27,895 nucleotides of DNA. Source: a virus (Duplodnaviria; Caudoviricetes). Below, one piece after another: positions 14,347 through 27,895 of the stretch. The position numbers and the translations under genes were made by a program. How positions within the stretch are numbered: the stretch's first letter is position 1; every line of letters starts with the position of its first letter. Location: positions 1 through 27,895 of IMG/VR virus record IMGVR_UViG_3300006641_000134; one strand, written 5' to 3'. The notes under the pieces are model-generated. The model did no database searches. It was not told where the DNA came from and saw only the letters and a program-made list of their open reading frames with translations.

Positions 14347-14369
14347 TTGCTAAAATCTCCTAAAATAGG

Positions 14370-14400: not shown

Positions 14401-14423
14401 TATCCTAACTACTTATTAAGTTA

Positions 14424-14651: not shown

Positions 14652-14719
14652 AAGATCCTCCTATTTCTGGGCCTTGTGCCCAGGAATTTTGGGTTTCCCC
14701 AATATTTATTATATACCTT

Positions 14720-16654
14720 TTAGGCGGAAATGTCTACAATCTCACAATTGCCGTCTGAAGTACAAGCAAGAGTTTGAGTCCCAGATGTTCCGTCTTCTGT
14801 TTCATAGAAAGACAAATCTTCCCATCGAATAGAAGAAGGCATTTTAGAAAGAAGTTCAAGATATTCAGTCTCAGTTACTTCTTGGTATGGTGCTTGCTTA
14901 TATGAGTGATCTGAATGCGGTAGGAATGAAATTCCAGATACCTCATCAAAATGCTTATATACCCATGCCCCTACTTCCATCCATTCATCTTCCTTAACAG
15001 AAACTGTAATTGATGGCTTGTGTTCACACCAAGCACGTTGGTAAACCAACCATGTATTTAAATGTTCAATTGCTGTAAGATCATTACGTAGAATTGCACC
15101 TTCTGGTGCTTTTACTGGAAATGAAAATACGTATGTATCATTTGGCTTCATGAAGTCATCTTCTACTGGAATTCCGACTTCTTTTAGAAATGTTGATAAT
15201 GGGTCTTTCTTGTCTCCACGAACTGTACGAATATAATACTGTGAATGCCATGGATGCATTCCTGAAGATACTCCAACAAGTTGTGATACTGTTCCAGAAG
15301 GCTTAACGCATGTAATTGCTGCTGATACTGGAATCTTAAGAGATGCAGCCATTTCAGCATTAATTTCTCTAGCGTATTCACGAAGCCCTTCTAGTGTCTG
15401 CTCAAGCTTCTTCAAGTCCTGCTTTCCAGAAAAGAATTTGTTTCCAAACTGTCCAGTAAGAGAAACTCCTAATAGACGTTCTTCTTCTGTATTATCTTTC
15501 CAGATTTTACGTAGGTATTTAAAGTCTGTAAGAGTTGACTGCCATGTTCCAAGGATAGTTGCTAGACGTACCTTTTCTGCTACGGTTTTAGGAGTGTCGT
15601 TTTCACGAATTACAACTTCGGATAAATTACAGAACTGATAAGGTCTAAGGATAATTTCTGAGCAGGGGTTGGTTCCATAATGGATTTCAGGATCCCGCCT
15701 TCCCCATTTTCCTGCTTGCTTTTGAGCAGCGGCAACATTGTATATGCCACGCTCACCTGATTTGGAATCATATAGATTCTTCCATTCCGCAATAAACTGT
15801 TCCATTTCTGGCTTACGAGAATATGCTACTGAATTATTTGAAAGGGCTCGCTGTGAGTTGTTTTCCCACCAGTTTCCTGATTTTGCTGCTGCCATTTCAA
15901 TATCATTAATATTTGAAAGAGAGATCATCGCAGAACGACGAACTCCACCAACCACAACGATTTCGCCAATCTTACACATAATATCATGAGCCTCAATAGG
16001 CTTCAACTGGCGACCTGCTGCAGCTTTAAATTTTGCAATTGTAAAGTCAAAAAGGTTAATTAATGGTTGTGGTCCAGAAGAACGACCACCCATTGTCTTA
16101 AGACGTGCACCTGCTGGACGAAGTTTAGAAACATCTACAGATGGAATCTGTCCCGCCCATAGCATTGCAAGAAGTTCTCGGTATGCTTTTGCCCAACCAG
16201 TTTTAGAGTCCTCAACTACGATTGTAGTTGTAGACTTTTCAAATGATTCTGGGACGGCAGGAAGCTTATTAACATACTTGTATTCTACAGAGAAACCAAC
16301 ACCTGTACCACACATAAGAATATACATCGTCTCATCAAATGATCGTGGTGAATCTACTGGAACAAATGAGCAGTTATATCCTGCAACATGGTCTCTTTCA
16401 AGAGCAGCACCTGCAGTCATTACTGCTCGCATTGAAGGCATTACGCTTCTGTCATATACAGCCTTCTTTAAATCTTCTACAAGTTTAGAATCTGGCTCAT
16501 ATGCATAGTTAGTAAAAAGATGATCAAGCATATACGCAAAATATCTATCTACAGTTTCACCCCATGTTTCACGACGGTTTTCTTCAGGGATCCATCTTGC
16601 ATATCGTGACAATGCAATAAAGTTTTCATAGGGGTTTTCAATAGTTCTTGACAT
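14720..16654 (-). CDS. nrdJ: Class II (adenosylcobalamin-dependent) ribonucleotide reductase
   Basis: YNCSF, VVVGGVRRSA, TNPCSEI, TCVKPSGTVSQL, WCEHKPSITV and a C-terminal cysteine pair (CTSDGNC). No small subunit nearby. Start moved to ATG 16654 (AAGGAG SD). Confidence 0.92.
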   Translation of the reverse strand: MSRTIENPYENFIALSRYARWIPEENRRETWGETVDRYFAYMLDHLFTNYAYEPDSKLVEDLKKAVYDRSVMPSMRAVMTAGAALERDHVAGYNCSFVPVDSPRSFDETMYILMCGTGVGFSVEYKYVNKLPAVPESFEKSTTTIVVEDSKTGWAKAYRELLAMLWAGQIPSVDVSKLRPAGARLKTMGGRSSGPQPLINLFDFTIAKFKAAAGRQLKPIEAHDIMCKIGEIVVVGGVRRSAMISLSNINDIEMAAAKSGNWWENNSQRALSNNSVAYSRKPEMEQFIAEWKNLYDSKSGERGIYNVAAAQKQAGKWGRRDPEIHYGTNPCSEIILRPYQFCNLSEVVIRENDTPKTVAEKVRLATILGTWQSTLTDFKYLRKIWKDNTEEERLLGVSLTGQFGNKFFSGKQDLKKLEQTLEGLREYAREINAEMAASLKIPVSAAITCVKPSGTVSQLVGVSSGMHPWHSQYYIRTVRGDKKDPLSTFLKEVGIPVEDDFMKPNDTYVFSFPVKAPEGAILRNDLTAIEHLNTWLVYQRAWCEHKPSITVSVKEDEWMEVGAWVYKHFDEVSGISFLPHSDHSYKQAPYQEVTETEYLELLSKMPSSIRWEDLSFYETEDGTSGTQTLACTSDGNCEIVDISA

Positions 16655-16748
16655 TTTTGAGTAAAGCTCCTTCTCCGCCTTGCGGTTTAATTTAAAAAAT
16701 TGAATAGATACCAATTCTACCAAACTTTATTTAGTGTGGGAAGAGGTT

Positions 16749-17753
16749 TTAGAATCTTTCTTCTAAATGTTTAAATGCATTCTTAGTCAACTGAGTCCAA
16801 CTATATTGTTCATGTATTTTAGTTGACTGAGCAAAGTAATAACCAGATAAAGCTTTAAAATTAATTGCGGCAAAAACCATTTGATCTTCTAAATGCTCAC
16901 GATCTGGCTTAAAGAAACTTCCTAAATGTGGATCTCCTACTGCTTTAGGAACTCCTTCTGTTTCTGCATCTGTAAACCTTGACTTTAACTTTAATGGACC
17001 AATAAATTCTTTATAATGTGCCCAATCATAAGTTGTTATAACTGGCATGCCTGTAGCAAGCCCTTGTAGTGGAATAAATCCAAATCCTTCTCCCCATGTA
17101 GGATAAACCAAAACGTGGTGGGAATGATAAAGATCTACTAGCCTATCTATTGGATACTCTTCTGTAATAACCTTAATATTACTATATTTATGTTCTGGCA
17201 ATATAAGATTTTCATCATCATATAATCTAATAGTATGTGGACCTATTGATTTTATTGTTAATTGATATTCTGGATTATTACCAAATAGTTTAATGAAAGT
17301 ATCTACTACTGCCTGCCCGTCTTTTCTTGGAGAAGGTTCTCCTACATGCAAAAACTTTAACGGTTGTCCTTCTTTAATAATTCTTTTTACAGGTTTCCAT
17401 ATTGACTCTATACCATGTGGATAAACATATATTGGTTTAGTTATTCCATTATTACGATATACATCTGCACACCAATCAGATGTTGCCCAAACTTCATCAC
17501 ATAAATTCATACGCTCTGTCCATTCTGGACGGATCTTAGTAGATTCCCACGGAGTATAACCAATCTGATATTGATTTTTATGTAATTTATAATGATGAGG
17601 TTGTGTAAAGTTTAATTGAAGTTGAGCTTGAGGATTTGCAAAATCTACTTTATGTCCTAATTCTTGTAATGTACGAACAATATTTTGTCCAGCATAGCCG
17701 AAACCTACTGCTGGATTTAATCCCGCCTTAATTGTGTAATAAGATATATGCAT
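16749..17753 (-). CDS. GT-B fold glycosyltransferase (family 4-like)
   Basis: YTPWES, CDEVWATS, PHGI, RKDG and YPTWGEGFGFIPLQGLATGMPVI motifs. Likely start ATG 17753 (AGGA SD). Confidence 0.85.
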   Translation of the reverse strand: MHISYYTIKAGLNPAVGFGYAGQNIVRTLQELGHKVDFANPQAQLQLNFTQPHHYKLHKNQYQIGYTPWESTKIRPEWTERMNLCDEVWATSDWCADVYRNNGITKPIYVYPHGIESIWKPVKRIIKEGQPLKFLHVGEPSPRKDGQAVVDTFIKLFGNNPEYQLTIKSIGPHTIRLYDDENLILPEHKYSNIKVITEEYPIDRLVDLYHSHHVLVYPTWGEGFGFIPLQGLATGMPVITTYDWAHYKEFIGPLKLKSRFTDAETEGVPKAVGDPHLGSFFKPDREHLEDQMVFAAINFKALSGYYFAQSTKIHEQYSWTQLTKNAFKHLEERF

Positions 17754-17773
17754 TAAATTCCTAGTCAACCAGC

Positions 17774-17803
17774 TTGACACTAATTGTCAAACAATGCTAT
17801 TAT
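17774..17803 (+). promoter_or_regulatory. Divergent sigmaA-type promoter region
   Basis: TTGACA-N18-TATTAT with TG extension. TTGACA-CTAAT-TGTCAA is an inverted repeat that gives a -35 on each strand. Confidence 0.55.
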
Positions 17804-17830
17804 TATAGTTCGTTATCTCTATAGGAGGAA

Positions 17831-18391
17831 ATGCCCATGGAGAATATCAAACAACGTGTGAGCGAAGTTGCTCATACTTGGACATCAATAGCAATGATAA
17901 CATTATTTCTATTTGGTGTCCAGCCTCAACCGATAGAATCGGCGCAGGCATTGGTAGTAGAACCAAGCAAGACACAACTACAACTGAAGAAAGAAACGCT
18001 GGAAAAATTCAGCAACACTGTATACAAACCTTCAGAAATGTTGTCAGATACAGAATTAAAAAATCTGTTGAAGGCAGTAGGATTTGAAGGAGTAGCCTTG
18101 AAAAAGGCTTGGGCCATTGCCAAAGCGGAGTCTAATGGACGCCCGATGGCATATAATGGCAACAGGAATACTGGAGACAGTTCCTACGGAATTTTTCAGA
18201 TTAACATGTTGGGAAAACTCGGCATTGATCGTAAAGAGAAATTCGAATTAAAGTCGAACATATTATTGTTTGACCCAGTAATAAACGCAGAGATAACGTA
18301 CTACATGACCCAAGGCGGTAATGATTGGAGTTCATGGTCATCCCATACAACTGGGGCGATGAAAGAGTGGTTAGGAAAGTTTCCTAATTAA
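17831..18391 (+). CDS. Secreted/membrane-anchored lytic transglycosylase (lysozyme-like)
   Basis: N-terminal hydrophobic segment. AIAKAESNG (catalytic ES), SYGIFQIN, LFDPVINA, WSSW. True start may be ATG 17837 given SD spacing. Confidence 0.85.
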   Translation: MPMENIKQRVSEVAHTWTSIAMITLFLFGVQPQPIESAQALVVEPSKTQLQLKKETLEKFSNTVYKPSEMLSDTELKNLLKAVGFEGVALKKAWAIAKAESNGRPMAYNGNRNTGDSSYGIFQINMLGKLGIDRKEKFELKSNILLFDPVINAEITYYMTQGGNDWSSWSSHTTGAMKEWLGKFPN

Positions 18392-18408
18392 TAGGAACGG
18401 AGAAGTCA

Positions 18409-18615
18409 TTGAAGGTACAGATAGTATCTAAATATTTGGCTTTAGCAGCAGAGGGCCTTGTGCAGAAAATGGATTGTCCATTATGCCAGGGCCTTCTGAT
18501 GCCTAACCAGGATTTAAATGATATAATTTATGTATACTGCCTAGCATGCCAGTATAGAAATAACATTGGACTTGTAGAATATGAACGAATGGAAAAAGCC
18601 GTCAGAAATATCTGA
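18409..18615 (+). CDS. Small zinc-ribbon protein
   Basis: TTG start after GGAG. CPLC...CLAC. Confidence 0.7.
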   Translation: MKVQIVSKYLALAAEGLVQKMDCPLCQGLLMPNQDLNDIIYVYCLACQYRNNIGLVEYERMEKAVRNI

Positions 18616-18703
18616 AATCCAAACCGACGGCGGTCAAATAAAAGAAACAGACGCTATGGGTAGAGAAAAATTCTGGGAAGACTTGGGCAGACCAAATGAC
18701 TGA
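18581..18703 (+). CDS. Hypothetical 40-aa protein
   Basis: Not in track. MNEWKKPSEISEIQTDGGQIKETDAMGREKFWEDLGRPND fills the gap and overlaps both neighbours. Confidence 0.55.
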   Translation: MNEWKKPSEISEIQTDGGQIKETDAMGREKFWEDLGRPND

Positions 18704-18911
18704 AAACGAAAAATCACAAAATTTAGAAGATAACCTAGACATGGTTAATTACATCATGCTACATAGAATTTATGATCTATTAACAATTATTGCAAATAAG
18801 CTAGTGGGACCTGAAGATACATCCAAACTTATACAGTATCATGAACAAGGATTTTTATTGGGTCCCACTCCAGCATATACACCATCTGAAGATTCTTCAG
18901 AAAACTCTTGA
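18696..18911 (+). CDS. Hypothetical protein
   Basis: 71 aa, last gene of the plus-strand operon. Confidence 0.7.
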   Translation: MTENEKSQNLEDNLDMVNYIMLHRIYDLLTIIANKLVGPEDTSKLIQYHEQGFLLGPTPAYTPSEDSSENS

Positions 18912-18936
18912 CTTAGAAAATTCGCTATGTGATAAT
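18908..18936 (+). promoter_or_regulatory. sigmaA-type promoter of candidate small RNA
   Basis: TTGACT-N17-GATAAT with TG extension. Confidence 0.6.
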
Positions 18937-18942
18937 AATCTT

Positions 18943-19033
18943 GCACTGGTTGTAGCATCCCACCACTTTTGCTCCCAGTGCTTGCACGTAAGTGCAGCAA
19001 GACCCATTCGGATCCGCCTCTGAATGGGTTTTG
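18943..19033 (+). ncRNA. Candidate three-hairpin small RNA
   Basis: GCACTGG/CCAGTGC stem with C-rich loop, TGCAC-GTAA-GTGCA GNRA hairpin, 14-15 bp terminal hairpin ending in TTTT. Has its own promoter and no credible ORF. Confidence 0.6.
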
Positions 19034-19045
19034 TCCTATATAGAG

Positions 19046-19118
19046 CACCCCTGGCAAGAATTGAACTTGCGACACATGGCTTAGAAGTCCATTGTTCTAT
19101 CCACTGAACTACAGAGGT
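19046..19118 (-). tRNA. tRNA-Arg(UCU)
   Basis: Cloverleaf, acceptor ACCTCTG/CAGGGGT, anticodon loop CT-TCT-AA, T-loop TTCAATT. No encoded CCA. Confidence 0.9.
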
Positions 19119-19119
19119 A

Positions 19120-19194
19120 TGGAGCCCAATATCAGATTTGAACTGATGACCCTCCGCTTACAAGGCGGATGCTCTGCCACTGAGCTAATCGGGC
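19120..19194 (-). tRNA. tRNA-Thr(UGU)
   Basis: TCCGC-CTTGTAA-GCGGA anticodon arm, T-loop TTCAAAT, 3' CCA. Confidence 0.93.
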
Positions 19195-19195
19195 G

Positions 19196-19269
19196 TGGAG
19201 CGGATGATGAGAATCGAACTCACCCCTTCTGCTTGGAAGGCAGAGGCACTACCAATATGCAACATCCGC
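19196..19269 (-). tRNA. tRNA-Gly(UCC)
   Basis: Acceptor GCGGATG/CATCCGC, TCTGC-CTTCCAA-GCAGA anticodon arm, T-loop TTCGATT, 3' TCCA. Confidence 0.95.
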
Positions 19270-19270
19270 A

Positions 19271-19346
19271 TGGCTGGACCACCAGGGCTCGAACCTGGGA
19301 CCTAGAAGTTAACAGCTTCCCGCTCTGCCGACTGAGCTATGGTCCA
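19271..19346 (-). tRNA. tRNA-Asn(GUU)
   Basis: Acceptor TGGACCA/TGGTCCA, GAAG-CTGTTAA-CTTC anticodon arm, T-loop TTCGAGC, 3' GCCA. Confidence 0.95.
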
Positions 19347-19420
19347 ATTATTATAAGTATACTAAATGTAGTGCGAAATGAAAAGTGCGCCCGAAAAAAG
19401 TGCGGCGGGACTAGAAGAGA

Positions 19421-19436
19421 TGTTTCACATGAAACA
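19421..19436. promoter_or_regulatory. parS-like centromere palindrome
   Basis: TGTTTCACATGAAACA, 15/16 match to the bacterial parS consensus TGTTTCACGTGAAACA, intergenic. Confidence 0.75.
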
Positions 19437-19457
19437 ATAGAGGGCCAATTATCCTAT

Positions 19458-19739
19458 TTACGAAGCCTTACGTATTTTCCTGAAATGAGTCCTAATACGA
19501 TGACAATTGCTACATACGATCTCACATTTAGCAATTTCTTCATCTATCTTCTTCTTGGACAGAGTTGGGATTAATTCCATTACATTTGCATGTTTCTTAC
19601 CACGGACGTGGTCAAAGTCCATGACATAATATGGATAATTGATCCCACAGTCCAAACAAGGAGTCCTCTCCTTGAGCTCTCGTATATACTTGGCCAAATA
19701 AGCCTTTTGCTTGGCAATAGAGAGCTTTTCAGTCTTCAT
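19458..19739 (-). CDS. HNH endonuclease
   Basis: CLDCG...MDFDHVRG...EEIAKCEIVCSNCHRIRT. Confidence 0.88.
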   Translation of the reverse strand: MKTEKLSIAKQKAYLAKYIRELKERTPCLDCGINYPYYVMDFDHVRGKKHANVMELIPTLSKKKIDEEIAKCEIVCSNCHRIRTHFRKIRKAS

Positions 19740-19841
19740 TGGTTATAATGCCTAGAACAAGGGATCATATGGCTCTAGTATATCAAGGAAATTTTTTCGA
19801 CTACCCGCCTTTTTTAAATTTTAACCATGCTTATACATGGC

Positions 19842-20213
19842 TTAGCCATGTTCATACCATTTAGGAGTAGGACTTAAATATGCAATTGCTTTATTTAGTA
19901 GATCAATATCATCTCTGAATTGTCCTAATCCGATATTACAAGAATTACAGAGCCATGATCTGAATGCTCCTGTTTTCCAATCATGATCTAGATACCATTT
20001 TGGAGAATCCCCGCCACAAATTGGACATCTATAATTTTCATCTGGATATGGATTCTCTAATTTTAGTCGACTAGTAATTTTTTGAGATATAGATTGACAA
20101 GGACGACATACAGATTTGTAATGAATTTTCTTTGTGCTTGTAACAGCAATAACCATTTCTTCAATTGGTTTTTCTACTTTACATACACGACAAGTTCTAA
20201 ACCTTTGAGTCAT
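19842..20213 (-). CDS. Recombination endonuclease VII-like nuclease
   Basis: CPICG...LDHDWKTGAFRSWLCNSCNIGLGQFRDD...AIAYL, plus N-terminal CRVC/CRPC zinc finger. Confidence 0.85.
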   Translation of the reverse strand: MTQRFRTCRVCKVEKPIEEMVIAVTSTKKIHYKSVCRPCQSISQKITSRLKLENPYPDENYRCPICGGDSPKWYLDHDWKTGAFRSWLCNSCNIGLGQFRDDIDLLNKAIAYLSPTPKWYEHG

Positions 20214-20284
20214 TCTTTAGGGTTTTTAATAAACATAAAATATAGAACCCAAAGAGTTAGTCCTATGAAAATTACTGCATCCAT
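20210..20284 (-). CDS. 24-aa single-pass membrane peptide
   Basis: Not in track. MDAVIFIGLTLWVLYFMFIKNPKE, AAGGCGGG SD-like sequence, ATGA overlap with the EndoVII gene. Confidence 0.6.
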   Translation of the reverse strand: MDAVIFIGLTLWVLYFMFIKNPKE

Positions 20285-20459
20285 TGTATTACCCGCCTTA
20301 TTTTATTACATAGATATCATATAGATATATATTGATATCTGGGAATTTAGATTTTAGCAAAGCCCCCCTACCCCCCATAGATTAAAAATCTATTTGAGAT
20401 AGAGAAGCTGACATCTGGTATATTTGAGTATCAGTGTAAGCCCCCCACAAACCATGATA

Positions 20460-20489
20460 AGTATAACATTAAAGATTTTGATAGGTCAA
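20460..20489 (-). promoter_or_regulatory. Leftward sigmaA-type promoter
   Basis: Minus strand TTGACC-N18-TATACT with TG extension, reading into the G-tract region. Confidence 0.55.
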
Positions 20490-20599
20490 GAGTTTTTACA
20501 AACTTTTTTATGATTGCTTAAAGTCATGTGTGCAAAGTCAGATCTAACATCTATTTCCGCCCCGCATTTATCACAAACAACGATTCGATTAGCTGCCAT
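20486..20599 (-). CDS. 37-aa zinc-finger peptide (CxxC...HxxxC), probably leaderless
   Basis: Not in track. MAANRIVVCDKCGAEIDVRSDFAHMTLSNHKKVCKNS. TGA-TATTAT lies 6 nt before the ATG, no SD. Confidence 0.65.
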   Translation of the reverse strand: MAANRIVVCDKCGAEIDVRSDFAHMTLSNHKKVCKNS

Positions 20600-20801
20600 G
20601 TAGGAATAATATCATATTTGATTCTAGTTGACTAGTAATTTAGATTTATAAAAATGTTAATATAATTTTAATTTGTATGATCCACGATTTTAAAATGTCC
20701 GTTTTGTCTAATTAGTGCGCCCATATGTGTTCTAACTCACAGAAAAAAGTATGTGATGTGCCTCACAATGTCCTAATATGTCCGAATTGTCCCCTTGAAA
20801 T

Positions 20802-20823
20802 TGTCGGTGGGGTCGTGTAGAGT
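20802..20823 (+). promoter_or_regulatory. PafBC-type promoter 1
   Basis: TGTCGG-N10-TAGAGT, also TTGAAA -35 at 17-nt spacing. Confidence 0.8.
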
Positions 20824-20852
20824 TATATATATAACGAAAGGAGATAACCACA

Positions 20853-20951
20853 ATGGATTATCTAGACTATATGGACGAAATCTACGAGGAATTAGTAGAG
20901 GAGTTTGGACACGAGATAGAATCTCAGTGTGTTCATAATCACACCGATTAG
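20853..20951 (+). CDS. 32-aa acidic peptide
   Basis: Not in track. GAAAGGAG SD. MDYLDYMDEIYEELVEEFGHEIESQCVHNHTD. Confidence 0.7.
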   Translation: MDYLDYMDEIYEELVEEFGHEIESQCVHNHTD

Positions 20952-20971
20952 AGGGTGTGTCGCCTTGATAA

Positions 20972-20993
20972 TGTCGGTCATAGGTGATAGTCT
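20972..20993 (+). promoter_or_regulatory. PafBC-type promoter 2
   Basis: TGTCGG-N10-TAGTCT, also TTGATA -35 at 17-nt spacing. Confidence 0.8.
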
Positions 20994-21021
20994 TACAGAC
21001 ATAACAATTAAATAAGAATTA

Positions 21022-21074
21022 GAGCGTGAGCCTAGCAAATAAACCGAAAGGGTGAGCCTAGCAAATAATCGCTC
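21022..21074 (+). repeat. 17-nt perfect direct repeat enclosed by a stem (candidate symmetric leader RNA)
   Basis: GTGAGCCTAGCAAATAA at 21026 and 21052, linked by CC-GAAA-GG and closed by GAGCG/CGCTC. Confidence 0.75.
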
Positions 21075-21109
21075 CCAACAAAATTAACTAACGAAAGGTA
21101 GGTAGCCAA

Positions 21110-21304
21110 ATGAGTGCTAATCTATACAATGTCCAATCCCTACTAGTAGGCAAGGCTTATCGTAGCCGTACCCTAGAGGGTATAATCCAAGACGCTGAGC
21201 CGTCTGATGTCTTCTATGATAACGCTAATGCGTACCTTGTCCGTATCCGCCCTACTCATGGGCTTAGCGATAAGTATCGTATCGTAGCCGTAGCGTGTGA
21301 TTAG
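21110..21304 (+). CDS. Hypothetical protein (paralog of 22936..23151)
   Basis: 64 aa, GAAAGGTAGG SD. Confidence 0.8.
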   Translation: MSANLYNVQSLLVGKAYRSRTLEGIIQDAEPSDVFYDNANAYLVRIRPTHGLSDKYRIVAVACD

Positions 21305-21339
21305 TATCACACCTACGCCCTAGCGTGTCGGCTTGATAA

Positions 21340-21361
21340 TGTCGGTCAAGTCTGATAGTCT
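21340..21361 (+). promoter_or_regulatory. PafBC-type promoter 3
   Basis: TGTCGG-N10-TAGTCT, also TTGATA -35 at 17-nt spacing. Confidence 0.8.
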
Positions 21362-21407
21362 AACGACATAACAAAATAAACAAAACGAAAGAATAGGAAA
21401 TAAATAA

Positions 21408-21566
21408 ATGAAAATCGAAACCGCAATATGGAATGGTAAGAAAACAAGAGTTTTAGCAGTGCCTAGTTTCTCTACTTCAGATGAAGCCCTAGAGTTTCTA
21501 AAGGAAATACAGAAACTAGATAAAGAGGCAACTCTTACAATTACAGCAGTTAGCCAATACAACTAA
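21408..21566 (+). CDS. Hypothetical 52-aa protein
   Basis: Not in track. AGGA SD. MKIETAIWNGKKTRVLAVPSFSTSDEALEFLKEIQKLDKEATLTITAVSQYN. Confidence 0.75.
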   Translation: MKIETAIWNGKKTRVLAVPSFSTSDEALEFLKEIQKLDKEATLTITAVSQYN

Positions 21567-21583
21567 GAAAGGAAACTAGATAA

Positions 21584-21703
21584 ATGATAAACGCCGTTCA
21601 AGTAATCAAATGCTCATCGTGCTATGGTGAGGGCTTAGTTTTCATCGGTGATGAAAATGACTTTCATATTGAACCCTGCGAATGTGTAAAGGAGTTAGCG
21701 TAA
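21584..21703 (+). CDS. 39-aa zinc-binding peptide (CxxCxGxG...CxC)
   Basis: Not in track. GAAAGGA SD. MINAVQVIKCSSCYGEGLVFIGDENDFHIEPCECVKELA. Confidence 0.75.
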   Translation: MINAVQVIKCSSCYGEGLVFIGDENDFHIEPCECVKELA

Positions 21704-21873
21704 TGTATGCTATGTCTTGGGAACTAAATAATCGTGACTACAAATACGAAAGTATTCAACACGGATATTCTGAAATAGATTTCTATGATGAAGAAGAAGA
21801 AAACGAAATAGAGGAAATCTCTCTTGAAGAAATAATGGAAGATGGTTTTGATTTAGAGGAGGAGGTTTTCTAA
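21703..21873 (+). CDS. Highly acidic small protein
   Basis: Start moved to ATG 21703 (AAGGAG SD, TAATG overlap). C-terminal half is dominated by D/E. Confidence 0.75.
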   Translation: MYAMSWELNNRDYKYESIQHGYSEIDFYDEEEENEIEEISLEEIMEDGFDLEEEVF

Positions 21874-22032
21874 ATGTGGGAAAATGATTTCTTAGGTATT
21901 CACCTAGATGAATATGGATTTACAATAGATAGCGCATGGTTTTATTTATCTATTAGTTATAATCTGCTACTAATTGCGGGAGCGTTTATTCTAGCCCGCC
22001 GATTTTATCTAAAGCGCAAGCGTGTAAGGTAA
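21874..22032 (+). CDS. 52-aa membrane protein with basic C-terminus
   Basis: Not in track. GGAGG SD. MWENDFLG...YNLLLIAGAFILARRFYLKRKRVR. Confidence 0.75.
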   Translation: MWENDFLGIHLDEYGFTIDSAWFYLSISYNLLLIAGAFILARRFYLKRKRVR

Positions 22033-22097
22033 ATCACAAAAAGGATCGGCGTGTCGATTTGACAAATCGGCAGCTGGCCCGCACGTTCTTGCGGGCG

Positions 22098-22159
22098 TTA
22101 TTCACAGCTTTATACACAGGTGTGGAAAACCCCTGGATTTTGAGCGTAAGTTATCCACA
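22098..22159. promoter_or_regulatory. Cluster of four DnaA boxes
   Basis: TTATTCACA (22098), TTATACACA (22110), reverse TTTTCCACA (22121), TTATCCACA (22151). All fit TTWTNCACA. Confidence 0.75.
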
Positions 22160-22211
22160 TGACCTAAATCACAAAAATAGTTTTGCGACACGCCCGAAAA
22201 ACGGGTCAAAA

Positions 22212-22233
22212 TGTCAGTGGTCTATGTTAGGAT
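22212..22233 (+). promoter_or_regulatory. PafBC-type promoter 4
   Basis: TGTCAG-N10-TAGGAT. Confidence 0.8.
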
Positions 22234-22268
22234 ACTAGTATCAAGATAAAAGAAAGGTAGGTCAGAAA

Positions 22269-22466
22269 ATGACTACACTAAATAAAAATGAAATAATCGG
22301 ATACTTAGTAGATAATGATTTTTGCGTAACAGATAAAATCTGCGTATTTTGCTCATCTCTAACAGACGGGTGGAACGCTTTCTGCCCTAGATGTCGTGAC
22401 TATAAAGGAATGATGGATTTGTATTCCGCCGTAGAATACTACGGAACAGAAATCCTACCTAACTAA
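22269..22466 (+). CDS. Small zinc-finger protein
   Basis: 65 aa. CVFC...CPRC, GAAAGGTAGG SD. Confidence 0.8.
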   Translation: MTTLNKNEIIGYLVDNDFCVTDKICVFCSSLTDGWNAFCPRCRDYKGMMDLYSAVEYYGTEILPN

Positions 22467-22482
22467 GAAAGGAAAACTAATA

Positions 22483-22695
22483 ATGGGTTATTTAGAAATT
22501 TTTGAAATGAATGAAAATGGTGCTGGTTGGGTATCATTAGAAAATGCTTCCACTTCTACTAAACTAGATTTGGAATTAGCAATGCTAACAAAAGCAGAAG
22601 TGAAAATGCTTTGCTTTGTTTGTCATAAAGAAATCGCAAAAGGAAATGTTTGCGTAAATCATAAAAATGTTAGAGGCGCAGTTTATTTTGAATAA
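22483..22695 (+). CDS. Small protein with C-terminal CxxC...CxxH motif
   Basis: 70 aa, GAAAGGA SD. Confidence 0.8.
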   Translation: MGYLEIFEMNENGAGWVSLENASTSTKLDLELAMLTKAEVKMLCFVCHKEIAKGNVCVNHKNVRGAVYFE

Positions 22696-22881
22696 AAATA
22701 AATAGCGTGTCGACTTGACAAAATGATCAGCTGCCCGCACAAAAGCTATGGGGGCGATTTGTCTTTTAAGTCCATTATGTCCGATTTGCCAGATCCCTGC
22801 GACACGCCGAGGAATTTGTGAATTTTCTCACACGGCTTGAGCGTCTCAAAATATGAAATTACTCGCTAGTAAGTTGAAGAA

Positions 22882-22903
22882 TGTCAGTGGCTTTTGGTAA
22901 AAT
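22882..22903 (+). promoter_or_regulatory. PafBC-type promoter 5
   Basis: TGTCAG-N10-TAAAAT. Confidence 0.8.
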
Positions 22904-22935
22904 TACGGAGTAACAAAATGAAAGGAAAACTAACT

Positions 22936-23151
22936 ATGAAAAGTTATTCAATTGTCGATTTGCTAGTAGATACTTACTACGCACCTACTTCTCTCCGCCG
23001 TCGTTTCAATGGCGGAATTATCAACCACGCAGAAAAGCGTGAGGATATTTATTTACCAGAAGGCTATGAGGCTTTCGCTATTCGCTACCGCCCAACAGGT
23101 CGCTTCAATGACGAATGGGCAACAGTAGCCGTCAGGGTCGCCGACTACTAA
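22936..23151 (+). CDS. Hypothetical protein (paralog of 21110..21304)
   Basis: Start moved to ATG 22936 (GAAAGGA SD). Confidence 0.8.
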   Translation: MKSYSIVDLLVDTYYAPTSLRRRFNGGIINHAEKREDIYLPEGYEAFAIRYRPTGRFNDEWATVAVRVADY

Positions 23152-23153
23152 AA

Positions 23154-23175
23154 TGTCGGTGGCTTCCGCTATAAT
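23154..23175 (+). promoter_or_regulatory. PafBC-type promoter 6
   Basis: TGTCGG-N10-TATAAT. Confidence 0.85.
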
Positions 23176-23203
23176 CTAATCAACTAAACGAAAGGGAAAC
23201 TAA

Positions 23204-23332
23204 ATGAAACTAGATGAATTCAAGGCTCTTGTTATAGAGCAACGCAAGGCGCAACAGGCGCAAAACTTACAGGCGATTTTGTCAGTCGCTTCTGCTACAA
23301 TTCCAGCAACAACAGAACGAAAGGAAAACTAA
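23204..23332 (+). CDS. 42-aa protein whose 3' half overlaps promoter 7
   Basis: Not in track. GAAAGGGA SD. MKLDEFKALVIEQRKAQQAQNLQAILSVASATIPATTERKEN. Confidence 0.65.
   Translation: MKLDEFKALVIEQRKAQQAQNLQAILSVASATIPATTERKEN
23280..23301 (+). promoter_or_regulatory. PafBC-type promoter 7
   Basis: TGTCAG-N10-TACAAT. Confidence 0.8.
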
Positions 23333-23334
23333 AA

Positions 23335-23544
23335 ATGGAAAAACTAGAATACATTGTAAATCAAATCCTAGACTGCGATTTGTGTAATGGTGTCGGTGCT
23401 CAGTATTTCTCTAATGGAGAGGACTACGATTTCGAGGACTGTATTTGTAATCCTTATGGGATTATTCTTGACGGGAAAGATGTCATTTTTGATAATGGCA
23501 TACTTTCAGAAAATCAACTATTCGCAACAGGGGAGGCTATCTAA
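23335..23544 (+). CDS. Zinc-binding acidic protein (CxxCxGxG...CxC), paralog of 21584..21703
   Basis: 69 aa, GAAAGGA SD. Confidence 0.8.
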   Translation: MEKLEYIVNQILDCDLCNGVGAQYFSNGEDYDFEDCICNPYGIILDGKDVIFDNGILSENQLFATGEAI

Positions 23545-23690
23545 TGAAAAAAAATGTTTTGATTAGTTATGTAGTAGAAGCAGACAGCGATTTGTCTGCT
23601 ATCTTTGCCCTGAATAAATCTCTTTCTACTTTGCCTGATAGCGAATTAGTAAAGTTTGACGCTTTTGATGTTTTGGAGGTATCAGAATAA
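23544..23690 (+). CDS. Hypothetical 48-aa protein
   Basis: Not in track. GGAGG SD, TAATG overlap. MKKNVLISYVVEADSDLSAIFALNKSL... Confidence 0.75.
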   Translation: MKKNVLISYVVEADSDLSAIFALNKSLSTLPDSELVKFDAFDVLEVSE

Positions 23691-23878
23691 TGATGACCCG
23701 TAAAGACTATGTTGAAACCGCTAAAATTCTAAACTATGTTAGCGATAAAACTCACCCTGCCGTTTTTTCTAAAATGGTTGTTGATTTCGCAGAAATGTTT
23801 GCGAAAGATAATCCGAGATTTGATGCGAATAGATTTTATTCCGCAGCGAATTATAAAATTCCAAGTTTTAGAAGTTAG
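23690..23878 (+). CDS. Conserved phage hypothetical protein (MTRKDY...DNPRFDxxRF family)
   Basis: 62 aa, GGAGG SD. Motif recalled from many phage early regions. Confidence 0.8.
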   Translation: MMTRKDYVETAKILNYVSDKTHPAVFSKMVVDFAEMFAKDNPRFDANRFYSAANYKIPSFRS

Positions 23879-23886
23879 GAAATAAA

Positions 23887-24042
23887 ATGACAAAAGAAAA
23901 AGTAAAACGTGTTCAAGAATTGCGCCGCAGTAATGCGGCAACACCAATTCCGTCTAAGAAAAAATATAAACGAAAATCAAAAAATCAAAAAGAAAAATAT
24001 CTAAAAACTTATTGCGAGCTGATCGCTCCGTTTTTTAGATAG
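23887..24042 (+). CDS. 51-aa very basic protein (weakly ArfA-like motif)
   Basis: Not in track. AGGA SD. MTKEKVKRVQELRRSNAATPIPSKKKYKRKSKNQKEK... Confidence 0.7.
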   Translation: MTKEKVKRVQELRRSNAATPIPSKKKYKRKSKNQKEKYLKTYCELIAPFFR

Positions 24043-24138
24043 TTGAAATTTCAACAAGCCCGCACACGGTGCGGGGTCGGGCGTGTCCTTACGAATGTGA
24101 TAATAATCACCCCGAAACCTGCGGCGTGTCGCTGAAAA

Positions 24139-24160
24139 TGTCAGTCGTTTACGCTATAAT
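24139..24160 (+). promoter_or_regulatory. PafBC-type promoter 8
   Basis: TGTCAG-N10-TATAAT. Confidence 0.85.
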
Positions 24161-24190
24161 TGCTGCGTATCCCAACGAAAGGAAAAACTA

Positions 24191-24685
24191 ATGGGTTTAG
24201 ATATGTATCTCCACGCTAAAAAGTATGTGGAAAAAATTGACTGGAATAAATTGAGAGATTTAGACCTTGACATGGATAGCGATGAGGCTATCATGCCACT
24301 CTGGAATGATATTGTAGAAACGGCAGGAATGAAAGATATTGCTACCGATATCTATGGTGTAAATGTTGAAGTAACTGCTGCTTATTGGCGTAAGTCTAAT
24401 CAAATTCACAAATGGTTTGTCGATAATGTACAAGGTGGAAATGATGACTGCGGCAATTACTATGTGTCTAAAGATAAACTAAAGGAATTGCGAGAGACTT
24501 GCCGTCAAGCCTTATTCGCTAAAGACCCTAGTTTGCTGCCGCCGCAGGCTGGCTTCTTCTTTGGCTCATATGATATCGATGAATGGTATTGGGAAGATAT
24601 CAAGCGTACTATCAAGAAACTAGACCGCTTGTTCGAATTGCCCGATTTCGACCAATTGTCCTTCTACTATAACTCATCTTGGTAA
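24191..24685 (+). CDS. Conserved phage protein (MGLDMYL...YWRKxNxIHxWF...YxSSW family)
   Basis: 164 aa, GAAAGGA SD. Widely recurring phage family of unknown function. Confidence 0.85.
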   Translation: MGLDMYLHAKKYVEKIDWNKLRDLDLDMDSDEAIMPLWNDIVETAGMKDIATDIYGVNVEVTAAYWRKSNQIHKWFVDNVQGGNDDCGNYYVSKDKLKELRETCRQALFAKDPSLLPPQAGFFFGSYDIDEWYWEDIKRTIKKLDRLFELPDFDQLSFYYNSSW

Positions 24686-24686
24686 A

Positions 24687-24708
24687 TGTCGGTGGGCCCT
24701 GCTACAAT
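24687..24708 (+). promoter_or_regulatory. PafBC-type promoter 9 (with -10 in a hairpin loop)
   Basis: TGTCGG-N10-TACAAT. TGGGCCCT/AGGGCCCA flank the -10. Confidence 0.85.
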
Positions 24709-24733
24709 AGGGCCCATAACGAAAGGTCTATAA

Positions 24734-25453
24734 ATGAAACTAAAACGCTCTAACGATAGGAAAGTAACTAATGCCGTCTCCCCAAATGGTAAAACCCCAA
24801 CAATTGCTAACACCTTCGGATTACCCGCAGGAAAGGCTTATTCATGTCCTGGCGCAACGTCTATCTGTGAAAGTGTTTGCTACGCTGGTAAACTTGAAAA
24901 GGTATACAAGGGAGTAAAGGCTACTCTTCTCCATAATTGGGAGCTCCTACGTAATGCCGACATGGATGCCATGCTGCTATTACTAGATGAGATGATTGTT
25001 GACTTTGTCAATGATTGTGAAAAGCGCAATGCTAAAAAATTATTCCGTATTCACTGGGATGGCGATTTCTTCAATGATACTTACGCATATGCCTGGAAGA
25101 CTGTTATATCTAATCATCCTGACATTCAATTTTGGGTATATACACGAGTAAAGTCTGCAGCGCTTATTCTTAGAGGTACACCTAATCTATCTCTTTATTA
25201 TTCTACCGACGATGAAAATAAAGAAATTGCTCATGACCTAAAACTAAATCAAGGTATCCGCCTTGCTTACTTAGGCAAAACGTTTGCTGTCACCGAAAGC
25301 ACAATGAAAGAATTGACTGGCAAGCCTGGCGCTAAATGTCCTGAGAATGCTAAGAAAATTCCTCTAATTTCTACTAATGGTTCTGCCTGCGTATCGTGTG
25401 GCCTATGTGTGTACGGTAAAGCAGACATTCGATTTTCTGCGAGTAAAAAATAA
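24734..25453 (+). CDS. Gp88-like protein (radical-SAM-related Fe-S protein)
   Basis: 239 aa. FGLPAG...CPGATSICESVCYA, FRIHWDGDFF, FWVYTR and C-terminal CP...CVSCGLC, as recalled for the mycobacteriophage gp88 family. Confidence 0.75.
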   Translation: MKLKRSNDRKVTNAVSPNGKTPTIANTFGLPAGKAYSCPGATSICESVCYAGKLEKVYKGVKATLLHNWELLRNADMDAMLLLLDEMIVDFVNDCEKRNAKKLFRIHWDGDFFNDTYAYAWKTVISNHPDIQFWVYTRVKSAALILRGTPNLSLYYSTDDENKEIAHDLKLNQGIRLAYLGKTFAVTESTMKELTGKPGAKCPENAKKIPLISTNGSACVSCGLCVYGKADIRFSASKK

Positions 25454-25632
25454 TGCCTGCTAATATTTTTACTAATCAGATCGCAGAATATTTGGAGGTC
25501 CCTTTAAATGTTGCAGAATCAATTCAAAATGTTATCGATACTTATTTTTATTTAGACTGGAGCGAATGTGATAAATTTGAAATGCATGCAACGTTCTTAG
25601 CTGCATATCAATTTTATAAAAACGAGCTGTAG
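25453..25632 (+). CDS. Hypothetical 59-aa protein
   Basis: Not in track. TAATG overlap. MPANIFTNQIAEYLEVPLNVAESIQ...LDWSEC... Confidence 0.7.
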   Translation: MPANIFTNQIAEYLEVPLNVAESIQNVIDTYFYLDWSECDKFEMHATFLAAYQFYKNEL

Positions 25633-25746
25633 AGCCCGCACACGTATGGGGGCAAAATTTGTTTTACGTCAAGTTACGACACACCCTGAAATTTGTGAGG
25701 TTTATCACAAAATAAATCTACGACACGCCGATAGCCAAATGGTAAA

Positions 25747-25768
25747 TGTCGGTGGCTTCGGCTATAAT
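25747..25768 (+). promoter_or_regulatory. PafBC-type promoter 10
   Basis: TGTCGG-N10-TATAAT. Confidence 0.85.
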
Positions 25769-25796
25769 TGCGCTATCAACAAACGAAAGGAAACAA

Positions 25797-26048
25797 ATGC
25801 TAAACACAGATAACTGGGCTTCTTACCCGTTTTCCGTCGAGGGTGTAGATTTTGTATCTAAACTAGACCCACAAGGCTCTTTCTATCCACAAGTAGAACG
25901 CCTGCCTGCTGGAGTATTTACTGCTGAAAATACTCGTATGGTAACTGAACTAATCGGTAATCCTGCTCTCTTTACTCGTCAAGAATTGCAAGATGAGTTA
26001 GACCGCATAAATGCTGGCGCTTCGCAGGCTCTCGTAGCCTTAGCCTAA
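25797..26048 (+). CDS. Hypothetical protein
   Basis: Start moved to ATG 25797 (GAAAGGA SD). The track start lies inside the promoter. Confidence 0.8.
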   Translation: MLNTDNWASYPFSVEGVDFVSKLDPQGSFYPQVERLPAGVFTAENTRMVTELIGNPALFTRQELQDELDRINAGASQALVALA

Positions 26049-26051
26049 CAA

Positions 26052-26073
26052 TGTCGGTGGGCTAGTGTATAAT
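26052..26073 (+). promoter_or_regulatory. PafBC-type promoter 11 (with -10 in a hairpin loop)
   Basis: TGTCGG-N10-TATAAT. GGTGGGCTAG/CTAGCCCACC flank the -10. Confidence 0.85.
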
Positions 26074-26103
26074 CTAGCCCACCACAACAACGAAAGGAAA
26101 CAA

Positions 26104-26379
26104 ATGTTATCAACCGCAACCGCCCTTATCGAAGCAACCGAACAGAGTATTTTTGATGAGGAAGTAATGGGCTTTGCTCAGGCTTTCTGCCACAATGCTA
26201 AAGACTTGGATACTGAACAATTCGCTAAGTCTATTTATGTTTATTCTTGTATGCTTGCTTCTCTCGCAGTAGATAAGGCTATGAAAGTTTTACTAAGCGA
26301 AGATGAAATCATAGACCTAATGAACGCTATTGACGAATTGGAAACAATGAGAGATGAGGTAATGAACAATGGGGAGTAA
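26104..26379 (+). CDS. Hypothetical acidic helical protein
   Basis: Start moved to ATG 26104 (GAAAGGA SD). Confidence 0.8.
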   Translation: MLSTATALIEATEQSIFDEEVMGFAQAFCHNAKDLDTEQFAKSIYVYSCMLASLAVDKAMKVLLSEDEIIDLMNAIDELETMRDEVMNNGE

Positions 26380-26644
26380 TTTCGCAACCGATTTAGCTGA
26401 ACTAGATTTAGGTTTATCTTTAGAGGATAGTATTGCTATCCACTTATCAGCTAATCATTATCCACCCGTTCCCCGCTCTATGGTAGAACCTTGTATTGCC
26501 GCCATAGATGCTTATCACGATGAGGATTACCAACGCCTTATTGACCTACCCGCACCTATTACTTGGCGGGATCAAAATCAAGCACCTGCTTCCGCTATCG
26601 TAGAGGCTCACCACCTAGACGCTTGGCTTCCGCAGTATGACTAA
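26369..26644 (+). CDS. Conserved hypothetical protein (HLxxNHYPPVP...HHLDAW)
   Basis: 91 aa, GAGG SD, overlaps the upstream gene. Confidence 0.8.
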   Translation: MGSNFATDLAELDLGLSLEDSIAIHLSANHYPPVPRSMVEPCIAAIDAYHDEDYQRLIDLPAPITWRDQNQAPASAIVEAHHLDAWLPQYD

Positions 26645-26669
26645 AATCACACTTTCCAACCCTACCGCT

Positions 26670-26691
26670 TGTCGGTGGGGTCTGGTAAAAT
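26670..26691 (+). promoter_or_regulatory. PafBC-type promoter 12
   Basis: TGTCGG-N10-TAAAAT. Confidence 0.85.
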
Positions 26692-26717
26692 ACAACCCTA
26701 ACAGAAAGGAAAAATAA

Positions 26718-26870
26718 ATGGCAACAACGCTAGAAATCGGACAAACCTTCACAACTGAGAAATCAGGTGTAATCGGTGTAATCAAGGCAGTAGATAACCA
26801 CCCTTCAGGTGTGGCTCGTGTGCTTCTTGATGTAAATGGCTCAGAACGCTGGACAAGCGTATCTATCTAA
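26718..26870 (+). CDS. 50-aa beta-rich (SH3-like) protein
   Basis: Not in track. GAAAGGA SD. MATTLEIGQTFTTEKSGVIGVIKAVDNHPSGVARVLLDVNGSERWTSVSI. Confidence 0.78.
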   Translation: MATTLEIGQTFTTEKSGVIGVIKAVDNHPSGVARVLLDVNGSERWTSVSI

Positions 26871-26893
26871 TCAAATGGCAGGGCTCACCAAAA

Positions 26894-26915
26894 TGTCGGT
26901 GGGCTCTGCTACAAT
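26894..26915 (+). promoter_or_regulatory. PafBC-type promoter 13
   Basis: TGTCGG-N10-TACAAT. Confidence 0.85.
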
Positions 26916-26945
26916 CTCTCTCTAACCTAAACGAAAGGAAATCAA

Positions 26946-27368
26946 ATGGCTAGAAACGGAAAATCTATTAGCGTGAAAATCGCTACAACCAAAGTTATCA
27001 AGGCTTTGGAAAACAAGTTAGCACAAGTCAAGAAAGACAAGGCTAACCAAAAAATCAACGAGGAGAAATACTCAAAGGCTATGGAAAAGTATAACAAGGA
27101 AATCGCTAAGATTGCCCTTGCTAACATTACCAAAGCAAATGACTTATCTGCTCACACAAGATACAATGGCGAACTAAATGTATCTTTCTCTATTCCAAAA
27201 GGTAGCCTAGACCTACCTGCTGAACCTGAAAAGGATTTTGAGACTTTTCACGATTGGCAATACAAGGAAATGGTAGATGAAATTGAGAACGCTATCCGTA
27301 TTCTCAAGATGACCGATGAGGAAGTCGTAAGCACTTCTACTTACAACGCTATCGCAAGATACTTGTAA
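26946..27368 (+). CDS. Hypothetical coiled-coil protein
   Basis: 140 aa, GAAAGGA SD. Confidence 0.85.
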   Translation: MARNGKSISVKIATTKVIKALENKLAQVKKDKANQKINEEKYSKAMEKYNKEIAKIALANITKANDLSAHTRYNGELNVSFSIPKGSLDLPAEPEKDFETFHDWQYKEMVDEIENAIRILKMTDEEVVSTSTYNAIARYL

Positions 27369-27375
27369 TCTTAGC

Positions 27376-27411
27376 GGGGGCTAGACAAAATCTAGCCCCC
27401 TATGCTAAAAT
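27376..27411 (+). promoter_or_regulatory. Hairpin overlapping a sigmaA-type promoter
   Basis: GGGGGCTAGA-CAAAA-TCTAGCCCCC, with TAGACA-N18-TAAAAT and a TG extension. Confidence 0.6.
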
Positions 27412-27440
27412 ATTTATCCCTACTAACAGAAAGAAAACAA

Positions 27441-27641
27441 ATGTATAAACTAACAGTATTATACGATGGCGATGTATTCGCTACTTACCAATACTCAGAT
27501 GCCCTACAAGCGTTTGAGGCTTTCGCAAGATGTATAGATGTGGGCTTTGCTGAAAATGAGGCAACCTATAATCTCTCAATGCCAACAGGCAAAATGTATA
27601 CCAAAAATTTCAATCGAGCAGGATTGGTGTCCGCAAAATGA
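27441..27641 (+). CDS. Hypothetical protein
   Basis: Start moved to ATG 27441 (GAAAGA SD-like sequence). Confidence 0.75.
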   Translation: MYKLTVLYDGDVFATYQYSDALQAFEAFARCIDVGFAENEATYNLSMPTGKMYTKNFNRAGLVSAK

Positions 27642-27880
27642 AAAATCGTTATCGTGTAGAAATCTTTGACGAAATCAAAGATAATGACCTAACTCTTTAC
27701 TCAGATGAGGGCGTGAATAAAGAATATCTAACTGAACTTGTATTTTCTAATCTCCGCCGCTTTTCTGGTAATGTTCGTGCTTATGTTTTTGATAATCTAA
27801 AGAAAAAGAAAACAACAGCACTTTATTTACCGATGGAAGTTATTCCTAAGAAAACGGAACTAACAAAACTTCTCGGATAA
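27638..27880 (+). CDS. Hypothetical protein
   Basis: 80 aa, ATGA overlap with the upstream gene. Confidence 0.75.
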   Translation: MKNRYRVEIFDEIKDNDLTLYSDEGVNKEYLTELVFSNLRRFSGNVRAYVFDNLKKKKTTALYLPMEVIPKKTELTKLLG

Positions 27881-27895
27881 AAAGCTTGGGGCGGG

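Follow-up and report, generated by a model that had tools for sequence, protein, structure and literature searches.

A candidate PafBC-type promoter array in a family of uncultured actinophages

An array of TGTCRG-N10-TAnnnT sites ahead of small phage genes

The window, that is, the whole stretch of DNA analysed here, is a virus record of 27,895 nucleotides (nt) with a G+C content of 39.7% (IMGVR_UViG_3300006641_000134). Its gene families include tail-fibre-like, ribonucleotide reductase, glycosyltransferase, lytic transglycosylase, HNH, and endonuclease VII genes, and four tRNAs are present. As listed in Table 1, it also has a co-directional block of small genes, nearly all of which lack a Pfam family; GP88 is the sole block gene in the window with a family above the cut-off. 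The element in question is TGTCRG-N10-TAnnnT, which recurs along this block. It was found 13 times on the plus strand and never on the minus strand of the window, against a mean of 0.50 and a maximum of 3 in 100 dinucleotide shuffles. A spacer of 9 or 11 nt in place of 10 gave no match in the window. The original prediction, made from the sequence alone, had listed 13 copies on the plus strand with a T-first spacer of 10 nt, and the motif scan reproduced all of them at the same starts. It had also noted no copies upstream of the late genes, and no match was found on either strand of positions 1-20801.

The first spacer base is T in all 13 sites of the window and in 67-68% of the sites across relatives. 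With the transcription start assumed to lie 28 nt after the first T of the motif, a register calibrated on leaderless host genes, the leaders are 19-40 nt long at 12 sites and 110 nt long at site 20972. All 13 leaders are A/C-rich and end in an AAAGG/AGGA-type Shine-Dalgarno (SD) sequence followed by ATG, as had been claimed. A canonical -35 element had been assigned to the first three sites; it is present there at 17 nt (TTGAAA, TTGATA, and TTGATA), each copy being one mismatch off TTGACA. Thus, 3 of the 13 sites have a one-mismatch -35, and the -35 consensus is absent at the other 10. The same phage is also represented by a longer contig (G005; 100% identity across window 9362-27895), which has 19 copies of the motif, six of them past the window end.

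In the accessible text of PMC8635444, the in vivo motif of the host regulator PafBC is tGTCgg(N10)tA(N3)T, whose upstream element spans -23 to -28. The phage sites agree with it in both sequence and spacing, so that the likeness to PafBC promoters asserted in the original prediction stands. PafBC requires single-stranded DNA (ssDNA) of at least 6 nt, according to the accessible part of PMC11804915.

Is the array common among related phages? At least 591 GP88 relatives were confirmed, and the best 80 of them were sampled; one is the window phage itself, leaving 79 relatives. All 79 have the array, with 6-19 sites each. Their sites number 1095 on the array strand and 9 on the opposite strand, and spacers of 8, 9, 11, and 12 nt were counted 24, 7, 4, and 75 times, respectively, versus 1095 times for N10. 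In the complete genomes, nearly all sites lie within one 10-15-kb block. For a non-circular test, anchors were chosen by SD, ATG, and -10 only, and TGTCRG was then read at -28 to -23. It was found that 314 of the 445 array-strand anchors have an exact TGTCRG in register, versus none of the 26 on the opposite strand; shifting GTC by one base gave 1-2 matches among the 445. In 50 non-redundant loci with an array head, a -35 element was found at 26 promoters of rank 1, 19 of rank 2, 2-6 of ranks 3-6, and 7-11 of ranks 10-12.

Some further features of the promoters were noted. The leader of site 2 contains GAGCCTAGCAAATAA twice as a direct repeat (window 21027-21070), and this stretch is replaced in related strains. 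At two promoters (window 24693-24717 and 26058-26081), the -10 sits in the loop formed by a perfect 8-bp inverted repeat. Hairpin promoters were rejected as a family trait since the excess is small (7 of 665 sites pair at 7 bp or more, versus 1-3 in shuffled sequences). Scans for sigma-70 promoters and terminators were near chance. A strong hairpin after gene 26946-27368 is overlapped by a -35-type promoter, TAGACA-18-TAAAAT with an extended TG (window 27382-27411). Contigs from RNA libraries cover 30 of 30 bins in two runs; such contigs reveal neither the starts nor the strand nor the level of transcription, and some of the material may be DNA. The contig depth was too patchy to reveal a doubling by a terminal repeat.

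Table 1. Positions of the motif copies and neighbouring features in the window
Feature	Position	Strand	Remarks
Site 1, array head	20802..20823	+	-35 TTGAAA at 20795; open reading frame (ORF) from 20853
Site 2	20972..20993	+	-35 TTGATA; 110-nt leader; ORF 21110
Site 3	21340..21361	+	-35 TTGATA; ORF 21408
Site 4	22212..22233	+	ORF 22269
Site 5	22882..22903	+	ORF 22936
Site 6	23154..23175	+	ORF 23204; degenerate R varies in related strains (23158 G>A)
Site 7	23280..23301	+	within 3' end of ORF 23204-23332; ORF 23335
Site 8	24139..24160	+	ORF 24191
Site 9	24687..24708	+	upstream of GP88 gene
Site 10	25747..25768	+	ORF 25797
Site 11	26052..26073	+	ORF 26104
Site 12	26670..26691	+	ORF 26718
Site 13	26894..26915	+	ORF 26946
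Nine CRP/GlxR-like boxes, TGTGA-N6-TCACA (at most 1 mismatch)	20726, 20752, 20928, 21296, 22023, 22817, 24096, 25694, 26636 (span 20726..26651)		by chance 1.01
Six WhiA-type boxes, GACACGCC	22048(-), 22187(+), 22801(+), 24080(-), 24123(-), 25722(+) (span 22048..25729)	both	by chance 0.20
BldC-like TGTCC direct repeats	20696..20792	+	at array head; further copy at 22778
Four DnaA-box-like 9-mers	22098, 22110, ~22121-22129 (-), 22151 (span 22098..22159)		exact TTATCCACA at 22151
Small-gene block	20853..27880	+	co-directional; likely early and terminal-repeat-borne (timing inferred)
GP88-family gene (PF17338)	24734..25453	+	homologues in terminal repeat of Streptomyces Stanwilliamsviridae phages
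HNH and endonuclease VII genes	19458..20213	-	just outside array head; Wipeout has an HNH gene at the same place

Stacked regulator boxes and the phage family

Two features were missing from the original prediction and were found here, namely the strength of the -10 elements (see below) and the stacking of CRP-, WhiA-, BldC-, and DnaA-like boxes on the array. The consensus sequences of the CRP-like and DnaA-like boxes are the generally known ones. Seven of the nine CRP-like boxes in the window begin 34-65 nt ahead of a -26 element. Across the family, the distance from the start of such a box to the -26 element downstream is mostly 34, 43-44, 53-54, or 64-65 nt, in a 10-bp phase (R 0.63, n 362), with a smaller off-phase group at 49-50 nt. 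DnaA-like boxes number 323 family-wide versus 26 in shuffled sequences, and the cluster in the window could be a DnaA-assisted origin instead of a transcription signal. The sequence GACACGCC is the WhiA/WhiB2 motif from chromatin immunoprecipitation, bound at recA too, in the accessible text of PMC13473873. Window 20779-20792 is identical to a 14-bp part of the optimised BldC site taken from PMC5859096, a pattern picked post hoc.

These boxes concentrate in the block: it holds 11 of 11 CRP-like and 6 of 6 WhiA boxes in the complete relative G001, and 11 of 14 and 8 of 8, respectively, in the phage genome G002. Among the 50 array-head loci, the rank 1 promoter has a CRP-like box in 46 and a BldC-like repeat in 35, and the rank 2 promoter has a CRP-like box in 45 and a WhiA box in 27. 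In each of three candidate hosts, a single gene above the cut-off was found for CRP, for WhiA, and for a BldC-like protein, and no CRP or WhiA gene was found in G001 and G002. The four kinds of boxes are presumably bound by the corresponding host proteins. Upstream of the regulator boxes lie hairpin-like units of GCCCGCAC followed by a G-rich part and no T-tail (~22077-22096, 22734-22756, 24059-24078, and 25635-25655). Two of these GCCCGCAC units come after a GCGTGTCG-x-TTGACA stretch lacking a -10, and TTTTACG is found at 25662.

Four complete relatives of the window phage are 110-116 kb long. All five phage records searched have a WhiB gene, which is an actinophage marker (PMC10202952, accessible text); a subfamily assignment was attempted and none was obtained. 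By portal protein, the closest cultured phages are Streptomyces phages of the Stanwilliamsviridae (52-58% identity), and the two runs with the largest share of the phage are aquatic metatranscriptomes. The source is probably an uncultured phage of lake actinobacteria. The block continues with TIGR03299/DUF932 genes and Api92-like (DUF1281_C) genes (L117:10274-11281 and 7285-8064; L105:1968-2969 and 5579-6349), families known from mobile elements. An anti-defence role of the block was considered and not established: no DUF932/DUF1281 literature was found, and neither the families nor the Atlas gave a function. G001 (L104, L105, L106, and L109) has about a dozen 2OG-Fe(II)/JmjC/cupin oxygenase genes and also encodes an AhpC-AhpD-like pair, Hsp20, and RecA.

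The Stanwilliamsviridae are generally known as lytic phages. In one of them, Wipeout, the GP88 block is present at both ends, and the gene offsets imply a 12.2-kb terminal repeat. The array head of Wipeout lies ~1 kb inside the right end and points inward, with the HNH gene outside. By homology to this terminal-repeat block, the block in the window is presumed to be early and to lie in a terminal repeat itself. The Wipeout array resembles that of the window phage in several respects: it includes GP88, its genes are small, run in one direction, and have individual promoters, the -10 is extended, and both TGTCC repeats and an HNH gene are found at its head. It differs in its -35 elements, in lacking TGTCRG sites and DnaA boxes, and in having one CRP-like box in 16 kb. 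Its promoters are TTGNNN/TAGACA types, often with an extended -10: such a -35 accompanies 19 of the 31 listed -10-like matches, and TGTCRG accompanies none of those 31. Since the homologous array uses -35 promoters, the -26 element appears to be specific to the low-GC lineage, with the extended -10 common to both arrays.

A survey of the motif across actinophages, proposed in the original prediction, brought no cultured phage with the array: 11 cultured records gave 0-4 scattered matches (controls 0-4). RedRock, a cultured cluster A phage, has an exact motif on the minus strand between gene 75 and the repressor gene 74 (45922-45943; L003:5923-5944) and a second one near the right end (52782-52803); both matches may be due to chance.

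Candidate readers in phages and hosts

Does the phage family encode its own reader? The search set consisted of 14 phage records, 12 of them at least 90% complete. No WYL domain was found in the 14 records. Nor was any PafC helix-turn-helix (HTH; one short weak match, E 0.009), PafB-type HTH (two weak 25-residue matches, E 0.006 and 0.03), or sigma factor found above the cut-off. Thus, the phage-encoded PafBC mimic once suggested as an alternative finds no backing in these records. A weak sigma-region-4-like match in 10 of the 14 records is a stand-alone HTH of 46-52 amino acids beside RuvC (L106:17847-18005 and L535:1480-1620). This HTH also occurs in 86 cultured Streptomyces and Rhodococcus phage records and was rejected as the TGTCRG reader, since Comrade and Wakanda, two of the 86, have it without the array.

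No tyrosine integrase (PF00589) was found in five complete relatives (serine integrases were searched for in G001 only), and no integrase, partition, or repressor family was found among the 131 of 147 G001 ORFs that were scanned. The earlier idea of a dormant genome induced by damage is left without support because no such family was found. The SOS box CGAAC-N4-GTTCG is absent from the window, G001, and G002. Replication genes of the phage include those for DnaB, primase, and Pol III alpha.

On the host side, WYL domains were found in 201 of 201 sampled Actinomycetes genomes (195 of 195 without six unpublished ones). A tandem WYL pair is present in five genomes of 1.3-1.4 Mb, and in four of these five the pair constitutes the only two clear WYL genes. 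In one genome, G197, PafB shares 95% identity with its counterpart in Ca. Planktophila versatilis and retains R46/R50 and R211/R214, while the PafC of G088 retains R201/R204; these are DNA-reading and ssDNA-binding residues in the accessible text of PMC8635444 and PMC11804915. Of 13 recA loci in small genomes, 11 have the motif immediately upstream, and of 80 actinobacterial recA loci, 55 have it within 400 bp upstream. Thus, a check of candidate hosts for pafBC, as proposed earlier, came out positively: acI-type genomes keep both the PafB/PafC arginines and the motif at recA.

How do these bacteria use the motif? At 11 of 40 host sites, some of them orthologous, an ATG lies exactly 28 nt downstream, as expected of leaderless promoters. 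The genes behind the motif include carD, a RadA-like ATPase gene, a LysM gene, and a C5 DNA methyltransferase gene. In four Planktophila-like genomes (L151, L155, L157, and L555), carD is preceded by the motif with an extended TG and TAGAAT, which makes it the most phage-like host promoter. In G130, the methyltransferase gene shares its island with a second methyltransferase gene and with DrmD-like and HEC-06-like genes. In the same genome, a variable island of 50 kb (C1:439654-489183; L546-L548), which has TPR, trypsin-like, methyltransferase, and defence-like genes, contains 10 of the 15 exact motifs, and G088, G182, and G197 are similar. This clustering suggests a PafBC-controlled island in acI.

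When a matrix was built from the -26 element and spacer of the phage sites, acI-type recA promoters ranked 1-4 and 6 of 56. The host of the phage family is probably acI/Planktophila. Two other routes to the host were abandoned. The ribonucleotide reductase gave 15 loci in genome bins of unrelated taxa, which were read as misbinned phage contigs. The phage AhpC matched 22 of the 201 genomes at 43-55% identity, no small acI-type genome among them, and was uninformative as to the host; the result counts slightly against this gene having come from acI recently.

Interpretation and likeness to known systems

The sites match PafBC promoters in sequence and spacing and stand before likely early genes, and thus the phage likely uses the ssDNA alarm of its host. 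It is reasonably likely that the 13 sites are housekeeping-sigma promoters of a probably lytic actinophage of ~110 kb whose -26 element is read by ssDNA-activated host PafBC, switching on or strongly boosting the block. The original prediction placed the early array in the host damage regulon; the motif match, the pafBC-bearing candidate hosts, and the dual -35/-26 promoters at the head favour this, and its dormancy part has no support. In the proposed mechanism, the block would lie in a long terminal repeat near the genome end and be expressed early. The first two or three promoters, having a -35, would fire on SigA without PafBC. Infection would produce ssDNA by end resection, nicking, or replication, which would activate PafBC, and PafBC would adapt the SigA-containing RNA polymerase onto the remaining promoters with no LexA brake. 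Host CRP, WhiA, BldC, and DnaA may tune single cassettes. Because the likely host has repair genes and a defence-island methyltransferase gene behind the motif, the takeover genes of the phage would be expressed just as the host alarm sounds, and the many phage copies of the motif may also soak up PafBC.

Several points weigh against this picture. Agreement with TATAAT reaches 5-6 of 6 positions at 548 of the 665 phage sites, and the extended TG is present at 62%; in contrast, host recA -10 elements match at 3 of 6 positions in 55 of 65 sites, with 12% TG, in a set of mostly high-GC taxa. The near-consensus -10 and extended TG weaken strict PafBC dependence, and such strong promoters may need no activator, PafBC only boosting them; the strong -10 also speaks for a degree of basal activity. 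Of 40 promoter-like anchors in G001 and G002, 26 are without the -26 element; a count by eye gave the TG and a strong -10 at 8 of these 26. PafBC activation needs ssDNA, for which infection offers candidate processes only. I infer the start sites, the timing, and the PafBC dependence of the phage promoters from sequence. The contigs of the relatives are akin to one another, and their counts are not independent. As for the host, the survey covers Actinomycetes, the matrix ranking is consistent with an acI host while low GC may contribute to it, and the phage WhiB pins the host to the phylum only, in line with the accessible text of PMC12143481, in which phage WhiB resolves hosts to phylum.

The same strong -10 elements, and the promoter-like sites without a -26 elsewhere in the genome, are what one would expect if the promoters were constitutive extended -10 SigA promoters. 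On this view, the -26 would contribute little to transcription of the phage and would act mainly as a decoy, drawing active PafBC away from the repair and defence genes of the host, and the other boxes would be decoys as well. The number of exact sites (14-24 per phage record versus 10-15 per host genome, 6-11 of the latter being matched by the control) and the host motif heading a defence-island methyltransferase gene also fit. However, PafBC binds the motif only with RNA polymerase, so that decoy sites would be working promoters anyway, and both the loss of the -35 relative to Wipeout and the helical phasing of the CRP-like boxes suggest contact with the initiation complex. I regard the decoy explanation as unlikely. 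More improbable still is a phage protein of unrecognised type that reads TGTCRG, as MotA/AsiA does at T4 middle promoters. The family has candidates in its small sigma-region-4-like HTH, a 161-residue HTH_17 protein, WhiB, and many unassigned genes; against them stand the array-less phages with the same small HTH, the failure to find a PafB/PafC-like HTH in the 14 records, and the identity of the motif with the host recA promoter in sequence and spacing.

That a dormant genome, integrated or carried, is awakened through PafBC by host DNA damage with no repressor cleavage seems very improbable. PafBC is indeed a damage switch, and the growth state of a slow-growing host could be sensed through the stacked boxes, but the integrase, partition, and repressor searches came out negative as described above, and the closest cultured relatives belong to a family known as lytic. 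A stalled state without integration is conceivable. There is barely any likelihood that a host factor other than PafBC reads the element or that the sites are not promoters at all: the sites are known from sequence, but their fixed register to the -10 and SD, the tandem pair as the only clear WYL genes in four of the five small host genomes, and the leaderless ATG register at host sites argue otherwise.

If PafBC does read the array, a wider and clearly more tentative picture can be drawn, doubtful as it is. A widespread, lytic, repressor-less lake phage would be run from a switchboard made wholly of host regulators. Head promoters with -35, CRP, and BldC elements would start a few genes, ssDNA would trip PafBC, and PafBC together with CRP, WhiA, and DnaA would license the rest only in an energised, cycling host. 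The host alarm would be the on-switch of the phage and would be drained by the phage copies. WYL sensors are known as host regulators of repair and anti-phage functions, and placing the first genes of a phage under one would reverse that role. If this is true, a lytic programme is under positive, repressor-free control by the damage alarm of its host. In a family with at least 591 relatives and a probable host in acI, a dominant group of lake bacteria, damage or ultraviolet light could then set lysis rates. Set beside Wipeout, the array would offer a natural example of a change from -35 to -26 recognition across an entire set of promoters. The dependence on PafBC is directly testable in M. smegmatis, for which pafBC mutants exist, and the RedRock motif can be tested there too. 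No description of phage promoters of the PafBC class was found in the literature, within a limited coverage of subscription papers. A 2025 study by Rafique et al. in ACS Infect Dis reportedly links pafBC to mycobacteriophage resistance, which could bear on novelty.

Finally, how does the array compare with known systems? With the PafBC-dependent promoters (RecA-NDp, recA P1-type) of PMC8635444 and PMC11804915, as far as their accessible text goes, it shares TGTCRG at -28 to -23, a 10-nt spacer starting with T(G), a SigA-type -10, and mostly the lack of a -35. It differs in having 13-24 copies in one block, a near-consensus -10 with extended TG, no LexA box, and stacked CRP-, WhiA-, BldC-, and DnaA-like boxes. 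The acI recA promoter has, like the phage sites, a WhiA box, then TGTCAG-TGG..TG-, and then the -10, and acI carD shares the extended TG and TAGAAT. In contrast to the phage sites, acI recA has a weak -10 with an SOS (LexA) box directly after it.

At T4 middle promoters, MotA/AsiA carry out sigma appropriation (PMC8635444, accessible text). In both cases, a non-canonical upstream box and a canonical -10 steer the housekeeping holoenzyme to phage genes. T4 encodes its adaptors, whereas no adaptor gene was found in the 14 phage records and the box is one that the host itself uses. SOS-controlled temperate phages have repressors cleaved with RecA or promoters repressed by LexA. They also couple phage genes to host DNA-damage sensing, but they do so by derepression in lysogens; the window phage, in which no integrase was found, would be under positive control by a host activator.

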